5,132 nt of DNA from a virus (taxonomy: Duplodnaviria > Heunggongvirae > Uroviricota > Caudoviricetes), in the IMG/VR virus record IMGVR_UViG_2671180435_000009; one strand, 5' to 3'. Position numbers and translations under genes: made by a program. The stretch's first letter is position 1. The number at the start of each line of letters is the position of its first letter. The notes beneath the pieces were generated by a model, which was not told the origin of the DNA, did no database searches, and was given only the letters and a program-made list of their open reading frames with translations. Of the stretch, positions 1,181 to 5,132 are shown piece by piece.

Positions 1181-1927
1181 TTACTTCACAACTCCCGGAA
1201 AGCTGACATTTGAACGCCAGCTATCCCAGTTAAACGTCACCCACCGACAACCGTTCATGGTCATGCGGTCCATAATCCTCTCACCAAGAAGCGTGCTCAT
1301 TGCGGCATGATTCAGGTTTGTTAACATCCCGACACTGCACAGTGATGCTGTCCGGCGATCAATTATCTGGTGCAATACCACCTGCTCGTTTTTCGTCTCC
1401 CGCTGAATGCCTATTTCATCCAGGACCAGCAAATCAACCCCGCAAAGCTCCTGTAAAAATTTTTCACCGGATTTGCCGTTGTCGTAGCTGTCATGCAACA
1501 CGCTCATGACATCAGACTCGGTGACGATAATCACGCTGCGCCCCTTCGCCATCAGCCGGTTACCCATCGCCGCTGCAAGGTGATTTTTCCCGGTGCCGGT
1601 TTTACCGCTGAACACAAAATTCGTGCACCCGGTCATCAGTTCGTCAGCTATGGATTTGGCCTGGCTCAGCGCGTATTTTTGCCCGTCGTTCTGCACCTGA
1701 TAATTCGCAAACGAGCATTTGCTGTGCAGAGGCTGGATGCCCGAACGATTCAGGATTTTTTCCACCCGCAACTGGCGATTCTGGCGGTTAATCTCCTCGC
1801 TGCGTTTTCGTCCTTCAGCAAGTTGCCATTCCCGCCACTCCTCCACCGTCCGGTACGGTGGAACCGCCCCCTGTGGTGCAAGTCTGTGAATACGTTCAAG
1901 AACCCCGGCTGCCGCAATGTTTTTCAT
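1181..1927 (-). CDS. dnaC: DnaC-family AAA+ helicase loader (prophage-type DnaC paralog)
   Basis: Complete 248-aa ORF with ATG at 1927 and TAA at 1183-1181, with a G-rich SD (GGGGGTG) upstream. Walker A FSGKTGTGKNHLAAA and Walker B VDLLVLDEIG are present. Blocks NRSGIQPLHSKCSFANYQV, GMLTNLN, LLGERIMDRM and FNWDSWRS match E. coli DnaC as I remember it (NRSGIRPLHQNCSFENYRV, GMLTNSN, LLGERVMDRM, FNWDSYRS), and the N-terminus MKNI... matches MKNV.... This is from memory, not a database search. Confidence 0.93.
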   Translation of the reverse strand: MKNIAAAGVLERIHRLAPQGAVPPYRTVEEWREWQLAEGRKRSEEINRQNRQLRVEKILNRSGIQPLHSKCSFANYQVQNDGQKYALSQAKSIADELMTGCTNFVFSGKTGTGKNHLAAAMGNRLMAKGRSVIIVTESDVMSVLHDSYDNGKSGEKFLQELCGVDLLVLDEIGIQRETKNEQVVLHQIIDRRTASLCSVGMLTNLNHAAMSTLLGERIMDRMTMNGCRWVTFNWDSWRSNVSFPGVVK

Positions 1928-1933
1928 GCCACA

Positions 1934-3057
1934 TCACCCCCTGAATCCCGGCGGAATTTCGGTATCCGGTTCAGAAATATGATTCACACAACGCTGGTTG
2001 TTCGTGCCGCTTACCGGGAGCAACCAGGGGTTTTCAAAATTCCGGTCCGGCCCAAAAAACGNNNNNNNNNNNNNNNNNNNNNNNNNNNNNNNNNNNNNNN
2101 NNNNNNNNNNNNNNNNNNNNNNNNNNNNNNNNNNNNNNNNNNNNNNNNNNNNNNNNNNNNNNNNNNNNNNNNNNNNNNNNNNNNNNNNNNNNNNNNNNNN
2201 NNNNNNNNNNNNNNNNNNNNNNNNNNNNNNNNNNNNNNNNNNNNNNNNNNNNNNNNNNNNNNNNNNNNNNNNNNNNNNNNNNNNNNNNNNNNNNNNNNNN
2301 NNNNNNNNNNNNNNNNNNNNNNNNNNNNNNNNNNNNNNNNNNNNNNNNNNNNNNNNNNNNNNNNNNNNNNNNNNNNNNNNNNNNNNNNNNNNNNNNNNNN
2401 AGGCTGCTGCAGTTGGAGTGATTGCTCCGGCCTTGCGGTCATCACCTGCTGCACAGCGCCCGAATCGGCTTTCAGCGCATACGCTGAATCGGCTTCCGGT
2501 GTCGAGCCTGCTGGCTGACCAGGATTGACGGTCTGAACATCCCCTGCCTGGTTCGTGGCGTTTTTTACGCCATGGACCATAGTGTTTTGATCTTCTTTAT
2601 CTGTATCTTTATCTGTATCTGTCGTGACTCGTCGTGACATGTGCGTGACATTTCGTGACGCGCCGTGACAATCGCCATTTTGTTCCCGCTTTCTTTCCCT
2701 CTCTCGCTGCGCCCTCTTGCGCTCTGCAGGAGATTTTGCGGTTTGCGAAATATTGCCGTTGTCCTCTTTAAGCACCTGGCGTTTTTCCCATCCAGTGATT
2801 AAATCACCATCAAGTACCCGCCCCTGCATCGTCTGCAAAATTGAATCAATTACCTCTTCTGTCACGTCGAGCGCACTTGCCAAATCTTCTGTCGTGACAT
2901 CAATGTGACCTCGCGTGACATTTCGTGACGCGCTCACCAGGAGGTGGATATACACTGCCATCACTGTTGCAATTGGCTGCCCTGACACCCTGGCAATTGT
3001 TCGCCACTTAGGGTCATTTGGCATGTCATGCCATAATCTGAGCCAGGCGTTAGCCAT
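1934..3057 (-). CDS. phage replisome organizer (O-like N-terminal domain) with DnaT-like C-terminal tail; reading frame changes inside the masked block 2062-2400
   Basis: ATG at 3057-3055 follows an SD (AAGAGGTG, 3068-3061). The ORF track starts at GTG 3063. The N-terminus MANAWLRLWHDMPNDPKWRTIARVSGQ... fits the pattern I associate with phage replisome-organizer N-terminal domains. Downstream of the mask, a different frame reads ...NQRCVNHISEPDTEIPPGFRG and stops at TGA 1936-1934, 6 nt before the dnaC-like ATG. This closely matches the E. coli DnaT C-terminus as I recall it (...RDVNTVSEPDSQIPPGFRG). The ORF-track end at 2011 (tail RFLGRTGILKTPGCSR) is in the N-terminal frame and is probably spurious. 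One gene or two cannot be resolved because of the mask. Confidence 0.7.
2062..2400. other. masked or undetermined bases (339 N)
   Basis: Run of N; hides the junction between the organizer N-terminal frame and the DnaT-like tail frame. Confidence 1.
2596..2619. repeat. 2 x 12-bp perfect tandem repeat TTTATCTGTATC in an AT-rich tract
   Basis: Read directly: 2596-2607 and 2608-2619 are identical. On the coding strand they encode DTDK DTDK. The tract lies immediately beside the iteron array. Confidence 0.8.
2621..2670. repeat. iteron array: 5 direct CGTGAC copies at 10-11 bp spacing; putative phage origin inside the organizer gene
   Basis: CGTGAC at 2623-2628, 2633-2638, 2644-2649, 2654-2659 and 2664-2669, all in the same orientation at roughly one helical turn, flanked by the AT-rich tract 2581-2620. 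The layout resembles lambda ori, which lies within gene O. Confidence 0.6.
2861..2933. repeat. second iteron cluster: 1 inverted copy (GTCACG 2861-2866) plus 4 direct copies
   Basis: CGTGAC or GTGAC at 2893-2898, 2905-2909, 2914-2919 and 2924-2929, with 10-11 bp spacing. A 21-bp exact copy of part of the first array (GCGTGACATTTCGTGACGCGC) occurs at 2643-2663 and 2913-2933. Confidence 0.5.
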
Positions 3058-3128
3058 ACTCACCTCTTCTGATACCGAATCTTTTTACTCACGAGTTGCC
3101 GGGAGCGATTCGATATGGCTATTGTCAG

Positions 3129-3408
3129 TCAATGTACTGCCACAGCATTTCCTGCCGGGCCACCACGGTTCATCTGATTGAAACCGGCGATTGCCACTGC
3201 GACAAAATCATCAGCGTCTCTCACCAGTCGTTCATGCGTCTCCACCAGTTCCCGAAAATAAGCTGAACTGTGGCTGCGCATTCGAGCCACCAGCGGAGGT
3301 GGCATTGCCCTTTCGATCGCAGGTAACAACGCCTGAATTTTTTCAACAGCGTCAGGGGTGTCTTTATCCAGCCAACGGAAAATCTTTTGGGTGTTGAGAT
3401 AAAGCGTG
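3129..3408 (-). CDS. 3' portion of an unidentified gene immediately upstream of the organizer gene (position of a CII/YdaT-like regulator); 5' end masked
   Basis: The minus frame is open from the mask edge at 3408 to TGA 3131-3129, giving 92 visible codons (...TLYLNTQKIFRWLDKDTPDAVEKIQALLPAIERAMPPPLVARMRSHSSAYFRELVETHERLVRDADDFVAVAIAGFNQMNRGGPAGNAVAVH). The ORF-track TTG start at 3329 is an artefact, since the frame is open upstream of it. No family recognised. Confidence 0.45.
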
Positions 3409-4586
3409 NNNNNNNNNNNNNNNNNNNNNNNNNNNNNNNNNNNNNNNNNNNNNNNNNNNNNNNNNNNNNNNNNNNNNNNNNNNNNNNNNNNNNNNNNNNN
3501 NNNNNNNNNNNNNNNNNNNNNNNNNNNNNNNNNNNNNNNNNNNNNNNNNNNNNNNNNNNNNNNNNNNNNNNNNNNNNNNNNNNNNNNNNNNNNNNNNNNN
3601 NNNNNNNNNNNNNNNNNNNNNNNNNNNNNNNNNNNNNNNNNNNNNNNNNNNNNNNNNNNNNNNNNNNNNNNNNNNNNNNNNNNNNNNNNNNNNNNNNNNN
3701 NNNNNNNNNNNNNNNNNNNNNNNNNNNNNNNNNNNNNNNNNNNNNNNNNNNNNNNNNNNNNNNNNNNNNNNNNNNNNNNNNNNNNNNNNNNNNNNNNNNN
3801 NNNNNNNNNNNNNNNNNNNNNNNNNNNNNNNNNNNNNNNNNNNNNNNNNNNNNNNNNNNNNNNNNNNNNNNNNNNNNNNNNNNNNNNNNNNNNNNNNNNN
3901 NNNNNNNNNNNNNNNNNNNNNNNNNNNNNNNNNNNNNNNNNNNNNNNNNNNNNNNNNNNNNNNNNNNNNNNNNNNNNNNNNNNNNNNNNNNNNNNNNNNN
4001 NNNNNNNNNNNNNNNNNNNNNNNNNNNNNNNNNNNNNNNNNNNNNNNNNNNNNNNNNNNNNNNNNNNNNNNNNNNNNNNNNNNNNNNNNNNNNNNNNNNN
4101 NNNNNNNNNNNNNNNNNNNNNNNNNNNNNNNNNNNNNNNNNNNNNNNNNNNNNNNNNNNNNNNNNNNNNNNNNNNNNNNNNNNNNNNNNNNNNNNNNNNN
4201 NNNNNNNNNNNNNNNNNNNNNNNNNNNNNNNNNNNNNNNNNNNNNNNNNNNNNNNNNNNNNNNNNNNNNNNNNNNNNNNNNNNNNNNNNNNNNNNNNNNN
4301 NNNNNNNNNNNNNNNNNNNNNNNNNNNNNNNNNNNNNNNNNNNNNNNNNNNNNNNNNNNNNNNNNNNNNNNNNNNNNNNNNNNNNNNNNNNNNNNNNNNN
4401 NNNNNNNNNNNNNNNNNNNNNNNNNNNNNNNNNNNNNNNNNNNNNNNNNNNNNNNNNNNNNNNNNNNNNNNNNNNNNNNNNNNNNNNNNNNNNNNNNNNN
4501 NNNNNNNNNNNNNNNNNNNNNNNNNNNNNNNNNNNNNNNNNNNNNNNNNNNNNNNNNNNNNNNNNNNNNNNNNNNNNNNNNNNNNN
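3409..4586. other. masked or undetermined bases (1178 N)
   Basis: Run of N; the largest hidden block, bordered by genes entering it from both sides. Confidence 1.
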
Positions 4587-4611
4587 GCCTAAATCAGAGG
4601 AGATATGTAAA

Positions 4612-5010
4612 ATGAGTACAGTCCTTTCCCCAATGGTTTCAGAATTTGAGACAGTTGAGCAAGAAAATAGTTACAANNNNNNNNNNNNNNNNNNNNNNNN
4701 NNNNNNNNNNNNNNNNNNNNNNNNNNNNNNNNNNNNNNNNNNNNNNNNNNNNNNNNNNNNNNNNNNNNNNNNNNNNNNNNNNNNNNNNNNNNNNNNNNNN
4801 NNNNNNNNNNNNNNNNNNNNNNNNNNNNNNNNNNNNNNNNNNNNNNNNNNNNNNNNNNNNNNNNNNNNNNNNNNNNNNNNNNNNNNNNNNNNNNNNNNNN
4901 NNNNNNNNNNNNNNNNNNNNNNNNNNNNNNNNNNNNNNNNNNNNNNNNNNNNNNNNNNNNNTACCTGTATCCTCCAAGCGAGCGAGTTCTTGGTCTTCGT
5001 GAAATTGTAA
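4612..5010 (+). CDS. hypothetical small protein (about 132 aa if continuous), middle masked, lower-GC region
   Basis: ATG at 4612 follows GAGGAG (4597-4602) with 9 nt spacing. The ATG overlaps a TGA (4613-4615) that would terminate an upstream plus-strand frame coming out of the mask. Visible N-terminus is MSTVLSPMVSEFETVEQENSY. The same coordinate frame is open beyond the mask and ends at TAA 5008-5010 (...TCILQASEFLVFVKL). Continuity is unverifiable. Confidence 0.3.
   Translation: MSTVLSPMVSEFETVEQENSYXXXXXXXXXXXXXXXXXXXXXXXXXXXXXXXXXXXXXXXXXXXXXXXXXXXXXXXXXXXXXXXXXXXXXXXXXXXXXXXXXXXXXXXXXXXXXXXXTCILQASEFLVFVKL
4677..4961. other. masked or undetermined bases (285 N)
   Basis: Run of N inside the putative 4612..5010 ORF. 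Confidence 1.
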
Positions 5011-5132
5011 CTCATCCTAACTACATCATCCTTTACCGAGTAACAGCATCAAGCATAGAAGTAGTAAATATTGTGCATTCTCGAAGACAGTATCCAGGCA
5101 AAAACAGTTAATTATTCCCGCCGACAGAACCA

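Follow-up and report, generated by a model that had tools for sequence, protein, structure and literature searches.

A masked block in a lambdoid prophage window as a probable allele of the PaaR2/YdaS/YdaT immunity switch

We asked what lies behind the largest masked block in a 5,132-nt stretch of phage DNA (hereafter, the window). An earlier note on this DNA had placed the immunity region there and proposed that any novel system would most plausibly be found inside it. Our analyses indicate with high confidence that the block covers the lysis-lysogeny switch, or immunity region, of a defective lambdoid prophage of the Qin/CP-933P type, which occurs in Shigella sonnei and in a small number of E. 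coli. We read the switch as a new allele, in immunity specificity, of the published PaaR2/YdaS/YdaT switch and not as a new kind of system.

Length and content of the masked block

The block at 3409-4586 is an uninterrupted run of 1178 N. The window has five such runs, of which this is the longest, as had been noted. The readable sequence consists of six segments (2,724 nt in total), each of which matches, with 100% identity, a cryptic Qin/CP-933P-like prophage found at S. sonnei loci L003-L011 and on IMG/VR contigs L020 and L021. The masked bases are unreadable, and the gene content of the block was taken from unmasked copies with identical flanks; coordinates inside the mask are anchored from its left or right edge and are approximate (Table 1). 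The window's own masked bases presumably carry the sequence of these copies.

In 15 of 15 independent unmasked copies with exact flanks (nine S. sonnei loci and six informative IMG/VR contigs), the junctions of the block lie 1012 nt apart, with 0-2 SNPs. In L009 (CP000038.1, S. sonnei Ss046) the interval is the reverse complement of 3567-4578. Two E. coli genomes have a junction-to-junction span of 1012 nt as well, and none of the nine loci, six contigs and two genomes has an interval of 1178 nt. All five N-runs differ from the real intervals (N-run/real: 1178/1012, 601/631, 5/8, 339/280 and 285/270). Because all five are mismatched, the surplus of 166 N in the block is most likely an artefact of masking, and we dropped N-run length as a sign of extra sequence. 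N-run lengths in such windows are unfaithful and unsuited to inferring content.

It is quite improbable that, between the identical flanks, the source has some 166 additional nucleotides (a small insertion, a duplication or an extra short gene) or an exchanged immunity cassette. The difference between 1178 and 1012 nt would fit such an event, as would the mosaic nature of lambdoid immunity regions: the full-length type occurs in 72 of 5,426 E. coli genomes and the ydaT end in more than 3,000, and insertions do occur in related loci (L019 has an IS91-family element and L017 an additional regulator). However, five mismatched N-runs in otherwise 100% identical sequence, one of them 5 N for 8 nt, are better explained by changed mask lengths than by five indels that happen to coincide, and the extra 59 nt of the 339/280 run would frameshift an otherwise intact O-like gene. 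The interval is also constant in every exact-flank copy, and the readable edges of the block already hold ydaT and the last codon and stop of the repressor gene. A true window sequence with about 166 nt absent from every retrieved copy is a remote possibility. It is very unlikely that the run marks a true gap left by assembly or scaffolding of the source record. Scaffold gaps are conventionally written as runs of N, but five runs of irregular length (5 to 1178) lie within 5 kb, and the sequence on either side of each runs on without a break in complete genomes. No assembly-breaking repeats were detected in the region, which assembled cleanly in 15 contigs.

In the unmasked copies, three coding pieces of known kind and one regulatory region (146 + 264 with a 4-nt overlap + 111 + 495 nt) take up the whole 1012 nt, which almost certainly leaves no room in the block for an additional novel system. 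A permissive Rfam scan of the block returned two far-sub-threshold chance matches only. The proposal that a novel system sits in the block was thus not borne out: known pieces fill it, and neither PADLOC nor Rfam gave a significant match. The unmasked copies contain the plain alternative that the earlier note had itself named, an ordinary repressor/cro pair with no added genes. Its placement of the immunity region was correct, as every unmasked copy has operator palindromes between a Cro-position gene and a repressor gene that diverges from it.

Table 1 Features of the window at and around the masked block, with coordinates of the window
Feature	Position	Strand	Remarks
Remaining N-runs	90-690, 791-795, 2062-2400, 4677-4961		
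ydaT-family gene	3129..3554	-	141 aa, CII analogue; 3129-3408 readable; 3554 left-anchored, approximate
Putative YdaT operator O_M	3544..3561	.	TTGATTCATGAAAATCAA; at the ydaS stop/ydaT start overlap; left-anchored, approximate
Putative Cro-position HTH gene ('YdaS-like')	3551..3814	-	87 aa; L009 4173-4436; left-anchored, approximate
Putative divergent regulatory region	3981..4091	.	111 nt; L009 4062-4172; right-anchored, approximate
Predicted 15-bp operators AATAG-N5-CTATT	about 4017-4031 and 4042-4056		25 bp apart
Repressor gene	4092..4592	+	166 aa; L009 4061-3561; start right-anchored
paaA-type antitoxin gene	4612..4806	+	64 aa; 4612-4676 readable; end approximate
parE-type toxin gene	4821..5111	+	96 aa; 4962-5111 readable; start right-anchored, approximate

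Regulatory proteins of the switch

The minus-strand gene seen entering the mask at 3408 is a ydaT-family gene. Its readable part encodes the C-terminal 93 residues and the stop, and is 100% identical to L009 4579-4858, annotated in RefSeq as YdaT family; the N-terminal 146 nt (first 48 codons) are masked. The protein matches Pfam PF06254 (YdaT_toxin, 5e-9) and, in the PDB, 3C4R (4e-79) and 8BT1, the YdaT of CP-933P (3e-70). Published work disagrees on whether YdaT merits the 'toxin' label. The predicted O_M (L009 4426-4443) is a perfect fit to the published TTGATT-N6-AATCAA, a palindrome with 12 specified bases for which we calculate about 0.001 occurrences expected per 12.7 kb. The CP-933P YdaT site likewise lies at the end of ydaS (PMC9986795).

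ORF calling and an HTH search, both suggested in the earlier note, yielded a clear HTH_3 match for the repressor (Pfam, 8e-9) and a weak one for the 87-aa Cro-position protein (4e-4; 20.8 bits, below the Pfam cutoff of 23). The latter is 81% identical to the counterpart gene of L012-type loci. It has no Pfam match to PF15943 (YdaS) at E <= 0.01 and no similarity to CP-933P YdaS detectable by BLASTP. Its putative Cro role is assigned from position and HTH signature, and the protein would be only a positional analogue of YdaS.

The readable part of the repressor gene is limited to its last 6 nt (GCC TAA, 4587-4592). Two plus-strand stops had been offered for frames leaving the mask: the TAA at 4590-4592 indeed terminates the gene for the 166-aa HTH repressor in all unmasked relatives, whereas the TGA at 4613-4615 is an out-of-frame triplet overlapping the paaA ATG (4612-4614). 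Residues 2-81 match the N-terminal domain of lambda CI (PDB 1LMB; phmmer, 3e-9). The AlphaFold model (mean pLDDT 76) contains a disordered linker and two helices and lacks a beta domain, and the top 10 Foldseek matches to it in the PDB are all lambda cI-NTD (TM 0.84-0.93 on target, RMSD 1-2.3 A). Over its last 44 aa the protein shares 52% identity and 77% similarity with PaaR2 of L019 (E 5e-15), a comparison made on unmasked relatives rather than on the masked bases of the window, and this tail is nearly invariant over 22 family members. The DicA model (NCBIfam NF007257) matches the C-terminal 57 residues only (7e-8), and the whole-repressor score of 32.4 bits does not reach the cutoff of 101. 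A Pfam match to Peptidase_S24 was not found in the 166-aa protein. As read from sequence and predicted fold, the repressor is a lambda-CI-type head joined by a disordered linker to a PaaR/DicA-type two-helix tail.

Several assignments were considered and rejected. The repressor was not filed with the CI/LexA family (S24), given its lack of a peptidase domain, its 166 aa and its two-helix tail. It is not PaaR2 itself, which has 123 aa (L019) and only the tail in common; we recognised L019 as the true PaaR2 locus by its exact PDB PaaA2 sequence and its 97-bp GTTTAGT-rich intergenic region. A 166-aa allele that is widespread in E. coli (P0009/L012) also differs from the published PaaR2, and so does the O157:H7 copy L016, whose 133-aa regulator is presumably paaR1.

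Comparison of these proteins shows that the heads and tails of the repressors are shuffled, and tandem-regulator and fused double-head variants occur in L017 and P0013-P0023. We give an even chance to the more specific reading that the 166-aa repressor is a natural chimera whose PaaR/DicA-type helical tail serves oligomerisation (PaaR2 is reported as an octamer) and that, together with the unrelated Cro-position protein and the 2+2 operators described below, it constitutes an uncharacterised immunity specificity among the toxin-antitoxin-linked PaaR switches.

Operators and proposed working of the switch

Operator repeats had been anticipated in the divergent promoter region, and two AATAG-N5-CTATT sites were found there. 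The motif was spotted by eye and then tested by pattern search: it occurs four times in 12.7 kb where 0.32 occurrences are expected, and none of 200 shuffles reached four. Two copies lie at O_R and two after parE. This 2+2 pattern, with conserved half-sites and variable centres, is present in every sufficiently complete locus of this repressor type and persists even in alleles that are only 78% identical, while the motif is absent from all four PaaR1/PaaR2-type loci. Only two operators were detected per side, compared to three or four in lambda and CP-933P. In the intergenic region, a generic repeat finder picked up only an A/T palindrome and one weak pair, GATT-N3-AATC.

A P_RM-like promoter (TTCAAA-17-TAGAAT) precedes the repressor gene. 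Its geometry is compatible with a leaderless repressor mRNA because the -10 ends 7 nt ahead of the ATG; leaderless paaR2 and cI have been described (PMC8630535). The CP-933P module is further marked by bistable cross-repression and an addictive toxin-antitoxin pair. A P_R-like promoter (TTTACT-17-TGcTATTAA) lies on the opposite strand to the P_RM-like one, its hexamers having been read by eye.

The working model, including all binding and regulatory steps, draws on homology with lambda and with the CP-933P switch, whose mechanism was worked out experimentally (PMC8630535). The repressor and paaA-parE would be transcribed together. Repressor dimers would occupy the two O_R sites, of which one overlaps the P_R -10 and the other abuts the P_RM-like -35. 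Such occupancy would silence ydaS-ydaT and the replication genes, and would keep transcription of the repressor gene itself, and hence of paaA-parE, going. The second operator pair, downstream of parE and just beyond the end of the window, would control a P_L-like promoter on the ydfABC/dicB side, and may loop to O_R via the C-terminal helical tail of the repressor. The Cro-position protein would compete at the same region, and YdaT would activate a P_RE-like route to the repressor. Because the repressor is without a C-terminal S24/LexA-like peptidase domain, RecA-mediated cleavage is not expected to drive the switch, and switching would rather be bistable or stochastic.

paaA-parE and related immunity regions

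Accessory genes downstream of the repressor had also been foreseen. They are present, as paaA-parE, but lie outside the block and not within it. The readable stretches 4612-4676 and 4962-5111 directly encode parts of PaaA and ParE, and gene calls in unmasked relatives place the two genes next to each other with a 1-nt overlap. PaaA matches Pfam PaaA2 (PF21217, 3e-23), the NCBIfam RelB antitoxin model (3e-27) and PDB 3ZBE/5CW7 (1e-23); ParE matches Pfam ParE_toxin (PF05016, 2e-17) and ParE2 in PDB 5CW7 (7e-37). A terminator scan after parE did not flag a hairpin that is visible there by eye.

Toxin-antitoxin pairs can cause abortive infection, and paaA-parE is downstream of and co-oriented with the repressor gene, exactly in the place of lambda's rexAB. 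Superinfection immunity through the repressor is itself a form of exclusion. Still, we consider it unlikely that anti-phage defence or exclusion is the main function of the block or of paaA-parE, as a module in the rexAB position, rather than plain immunity with a toxin-antitoxin pair that stabilises it. The search against defence models proposed in the earlier note came back empty: PADLOC-DB 2.0 gave no significant match among the five proteins of the block and its neighbours, four of which had no match at all, the 87-aa protein having marginal HTH-type matches (6e-4 and 4e-3). The toxin-antitoxin pair is outside the block, and in the reference system, activating the locus was found not to activate ParE2; the authors put forward a role of the pair in keeping the immunity region stable (PMC8630535).

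The immunity switch has its closest known counterpart in CP-933P (Sp12) of E. coli O157:H7, whose paaR2-paaA2-parE2 / ydaS-ydaT region has been described (Jurenas et al. 2021, PMC8630535) and whose YdaT structure is published (PMC9986795). Gene order and orientation are identical, with ydaT and ydaS on one strand and the repressor, paaA and parE on the other, and the flanks are likewise O-like replication genes and ydfA/dicB. YdaT, PaaA and ParE are clear homologs, and the exact O_M is in the same place. Also shared are the repressor tail (C-terminal ~45 aa, 52% conserved), the leaderless geometry and, on the P_L side, a second set of operators. However, PaaR2 has 123 aa and a head that cannot be aligned with the lambda-CI-type head of the 166-aa repressor. 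CP-933P has GTTTAGTAA-type operator repeats in a 97-bp intergenic region, whereas here the repeats are AATAG-N5-CTATT in 111 bp; no GTTTAGTAA half-sites are present. Because the repressor head, the Cro-position protein and the operators are all unlike those of CP-933P, the immunity specificity probably differs from that of the paaR2 allele, within the same module family.

The switch resembles lambda in the repressor head, which is homologous to the CI N-terminal domain (34-40% identity), has a basic N-terminal arm and, as read from the alignment, carries acidic residues E34 and D38 at the positions of the positive-control patch. The role of these residues in positive control is established. 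Divergent promoters, paired palindromic operators of 15-17 bp about 25 bp apart, a P_L-side set, and co-transcribed accessory genes downstream of the repressor are further common features. In contrast, lambda CI has an S24/LexA-like peptidase-dimerisation domain that the 166-aa repressor lacks. CII is replaced here by YdaT, a POU-type tetramer, as its analogue, and rexAB by a ParE toxin-antitoxin pair.

DicA/DicC in the Qin (Kim) prophage of E. coli K-12 occupies the same neighbourhood, with ydfA-ydfB-ydfC-dicB downstream and ydfI/ydfH/ynfF-type flanks, but DicA differs from the 166-aa repressor in its head. The repressor is expected to keep the dicB-side operon off. K-12 Qin is not known to have paaA-parE between dicA and ydfA. 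In the RacR/YdaS/YdaT system of the K-12 Rac prophage, a YdaT-family protein is likewise in the CII position, whereas the 166-aa repressor is not RacR-like. The gene for Rac YdaT follows a small HTH gene that is transcribed away from the repressor gene (PMC5700373, PMC5917428), and published identities of CP-933P YdaS and YdaT to the Rac proteins are 26% and 31%.

Our literature search on the S. sonnei variant found reviews only, and the right flank had no good match in the phage collection (one partial match of 80%). The discovery value of the locus is small, since the sister allele in E. coli O157:H7 has already been worked out experimentally. It has modest comparative value. The immunity type has reached fixation in Shigella sonnei and occurs in about 1% of complete E. 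coli genomes, and it comes with a clean, statistically supported 2 + 2 operator prediction. DNA-binding heads have been exchanged modularly on a conserved repressor tail, and the YdaT operator stays conserved from one immunity type to another.

Unmasked copies of the block

The only complete unmasked protein of the window, a 248-aa DnaC/IstB-like protein, served as the exact-sequence query for locating related loci. It sits in a cryptic Shigella sonnei prophage, for example in strain Ss046 (CP000038.1, L009). All six readable segments of the window (2,724 nt) align at 100% identity and without gaps to nine S. sonnei loci, and are present exactly in two IMG/VR contigs (L020 and L021).

The earlier note had picked out 3409-4586 as the largest masked block, and with 1178 N it is the biggest of the five N-runs (the others are 90-690, 791-795, 2062-2400 and 4677-4961). 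In unmasked copies the same junction-to-junction interval is 1012 nt. It is identical in seven of the nine S. sonnei loci and has one SNP in the remaining two, six further IMG/VR contigs carry it with 0-2 SNPs, and the length recurs in two complete E. coli genomes, the only ones with the shared right flank. The N-run therefore exceeds any real copy by 166 nt, which could reflect a real difference inside the block between the window's source and the known copies. We consider this very unlikely, as all five N-runs mismatch the true intervals in otherwise 100% identical DNA (for the other four, 601 vs 631, 5 vs 8, 339 vs 280 and 285 vs 270 nt). Taken at face value, the 339-N run would add 59 nt to the O-like replication gene in which it falls and break the reading frame. 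Five coincident indels are far less likely than altered N-run lengths, so we take the 1012-nt sequence as the probable hidden content and attribute the 166-nt excess to mask-length alteration. With the window's own bases masked, the sequence of the identical-flank copies is our best estimate; N-run length in this window is of no use as evidence of content.

The minus-strand gene seen to enter the block at 3408 is the 3' two-thirds (3129-3408) of a ydaT-family gene, labeled 'toxin YdaT family protein' in RefSeq. Of the two plus-strand exits proposed, only TAA 4590-4592 stood: in every unmasked relative a 166-aa HTH gene, the repressor, ends on the readable GCC TAA (4587-4592), its final codon plus stop. 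The other, TGA 4613-4615, is no more than a triplet overlapping the start codon (ATG, 4612) of the gene that follows.

Elsewhere in the prophage, the minus-strand O-like gene contains clustered CGTGACA / TCGTGAC repeats and an internal repeat of ~47 nt (85% identity, BLAST self-hits). Inside this replication-organiser gene they probably serve as origin iterons, as in the O gene of lambda. An Eco57I-type N6-methyltransferase beside a BsuBI/PstI-type restriction endonuclease, with IS1 copies on either side, is restriction-modification cargo of the S. sonnei cryptic prophage.

Genes of the immunity region and their products

Four pieces, from ydaT to the repressor gene, add up to the 1012 nt, which leaves no room for a further gene. 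Repressor and Cro-position genes, together with operators, are present in the unmasked copies, and the positional reading of the block as an immunity region is right. The suggestion that a novel system lies here finds no support: the interval is filled by known pieces, none of the five proteins had a significant hit among the PADLOC models, and the copies carry an ordinary repressor/cro pair without additional genes, the outcome that the earlier note had itself set against the idea. Rfam at E <= 1 returned merely two matches, both far below threshold, and a repeat finder returned nothing but weak palindromes.

Coordinates of the features in the window and in related loci (L009, S. sonnei Ss046, runs opposite to the window)
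Feature	Strand	Position	Extent or detail	Source
ydaT (CII-position gene)	minus		first 146 nt	unmasked copies
87-aa gene (Cro-position)	minus		stop overlaps ydaT start (ATGA)	unmasked copies
Intergenic region			111 nt	unmasked copies
166-aa gene (repressor)	plus	ends window 4592	first 495 of 501 nt	unmasked copies
PaaA2-family antitoxin		from window 4612	64 aa	downstream of block, part readable
ParE toxin		ends window 5111	96 aa	downstream of block, part readable
DnaC/IstB-like gene		window 1181-1927		window
Repeats in O-like gene	minus	window 2618-2665, 2888-2935		window
YdaT operator (O_M)		L009 4426-4443	across ydaS-stop/ydaT-start overlap	L009
O_L-like pair		L009 3000-2959	36-75 nt past window end 5132	L009
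Hairpin after parE		L009 3042-3018	from window 5126-5132 off its end	L009
GATT-N3-AATC palindromes		L009 4169-4181, 4077-4089	92 bp centre to centre; mask equivalent	L009
Restriction-modification genes		L009 8561-11472	beyond window's left end	L009
paaA-parE indel		L006 (CP029794.1) about 3037-3347	1 nt	S. sonnei
Tandem regulators		L017 1977-2840	5' of paaA-parE	related locus
IS91-family insertion		L019 1319-2871	paaR2-paaA2 allele	E. coli

YdaT (141 aa) matches Pfam YdaT_toxin and the crystal structures 3C4R (4e-79) and 8BT1 (3e-70), the latter being YdaT of CP-933P, a cryptic prophage of E. coli O157:H7. The repressor has an HTH_3 domain (8e-9), and its residues 2-81 align to the N-terminal domain of lambda CI (3e-9). 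Its AlphaFold model (22 homologs in the alignment, mean pLDDT 76) has helices at 8-91, a disordered linker at 92-118 and two helices at 119-164. The ten best PDB matches to this model are all lambda cI-NTD (TM 0.84-0.93 on target, RMSD 1.0-2.3 Å, 34-40% identity). The C-terminal ~45 residues form a conserved module (…AFPEEDQ…KKESM…ARWLAAQKGRRA), and an S24 peptidase domain is absent from the protein. E34 and D38 of lambda CI are positive-control patch residues; in the alignment the repressor keeps E at the first position and has E at the second, which would fit self-activation.

The 87-aa protein has a sub-threshold HTH_3 signature, no solved relative of it was found, and its assignment as a Cro analogue is positional. 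PaaA and ParE match crystallised PaaA2 (1e-23) and ParE2 (7e-37). One S. sonnei genome (L006) has a single-nucleotide indel within the paaA-parE stretch and no called parE gene; there the toxin has probably been inactivated, with antitoxin and repressor remaining.

Predicted operators and promoters

Reading of the intergenic region suggested AATAG-N5-CTATT, a 15-bp palindrome, as the operator motif, and a pattern search was then run with <=1 mismatch. The 12.7-kb locus has exactly four occurrences of the motif vs 0.32 expected by chance, and none of 200 shuffles reached four. The predicted sites form an O_R-like pair in the intergenic region (25 bp apart) and an O_L-like pair just 3' of parE (27 bp apart). 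When the motif was counted in 28 fetched loci as a covariation test, this 2 + 2 arrangement was found in every sufficiently complete locus encoding this repressor type, 78%-identical alleles included; the half-sites are conserved and the central bases vary. The motif is absent from all four loci whose regulators are of PaaR1 or PaaR2 type. Among otherwise identical copies, a poly-A tract in the promoter spacer makes the distance between the O_L sites vary (25-28 bp), and this variation may tune expression on the ydfABC/dicB side.

The repressor ATG lies 7 nt beyond the end of a P_RM-like promoter (TTCAAA-17-TAGAAT), a geometry compatible with leaderless transcription. One operator directly adjoins the -35 of this promoter, just as O_R2 abuts P_RM in lambda. 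On the opposite strand, a P_R-like TTTACT-17-TGcTATTAA has its -10 within the other operator (by eye), and a near-identical, P_L-like TTTACA…TGcTATTGT after the O_L pair is directed at ydfA. TTGATTCATGAAAATCAA matches the published YdaT operator perfectly and sits at the position published for CP-933P.

Directly after the parE stop, a hairpin (AACCACC-TTAG-GGTGGTT, then TTTTT) that the automatic scan left unflagged looks like the intrinsic terminator of the repressor-paaA-parE transcript. Two GATT-N3-AATC palindromes with AA/TT extensions may both be chance occurrences. The AAGATTCATAATC palindrome covers the start codon of the Cro-like gene; the GATTAGCAATCTT palindrome lies within the P_RM-like spacer and is kept in the L012-type allele, a related 166-aa repressor.

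Relation to CP-933P and a proposed switch

In CP-933P, PaaR2, YdaS and YdaT take the roles that CI, Cro and CII have in lambda, the paaR2 transcript is leaderless, and a 97-bp intergenic region with GTTTAGTAA-type repeats is bound by PaaR2 and YdaS. A P_L-like promoter has similar operators, the locus is bistable, PaaR2 is reported to be octameric, and paaA2-parE2, an addictive pair, may lend stability to the immunity region (Jurenas et al., PMC8630535). YdaT is a tetramer that recognises TTGATT-N6-AATCAA at the ydaS end (Prolic-Kalinsek et al., PMC9986795). The 123-aa regulator of the related locus L019 is PaaR2, since the PaaA2 encoded there is identical to the PDB sequence and the 97-bp intergenic region is rich in GTTTAGT. 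The 133-aa regulator of a second O157:H7 copy is presumably paaR1. The CP-933P and S. sonnei modules share gene order, YdaT, the PaaA-ParE pair and the repressor tail, but the repressor head and Cro-position protein are unrelated and the operators differ. No specific description of the S. sonnei allele was found in the literature searched.

A widespread 166-aa allele (P0009), 78% identical to the S. sonnei repressor, occurs on at least 1000 contigs. Among 5,426 complete E. coli genomes, 3,093 share the ydaT end of the block and only 72 have the full 1012-nt type, just three of these at >95% identity. Immunity cassettes are exchanged, the usual lambdoid pattern. Related locus L017 has tandem regulators, a 123-aa PaaR2-type and a 153-aa PaaR1-type, and some related proteins (P0013-P0023, 240-255 aa) are fusions that join the 166-aa family's CI-type head to a second, complete HTH regulator bearing the shared tail; repressor heads and tails are evidently shuffled among relatives. 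In L019, an IS91-family transposase and an accessory ORF lie between paaA2 and parE2, and the insertion takes the place of the toxin's N-terminus.

Building on the gene content, homologies, fold, operator statistics and covariation of the unmasked copies, we propose that repressor at the O_R pair would turn P_R off (ydaS-ydaT and replication genes) and sustain P_RM (repressor-paaA-parE), and at the O_L pair would keep the ydfABC/dicB side off. The helical tail could possibly mediate O_R-O_L looping (compare the PaaR2 octamer). The Cro-position protein would compete at O_R, and YdaT at O_M would provide a P_RE-like route to the repressor. Because the repressor is without a peptidase domain, switching is expected to be bistable or stochastic rather than driven by SOS cleavage, and co-expression of the toxin-antitoxin pair with the repressor would penalise loss of the region. 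The most fitting description of the block is a new immunity specificity within an experimentally characterised kind of prophage switch: the kind is known from CP-933P, and what is new here is the specificity.
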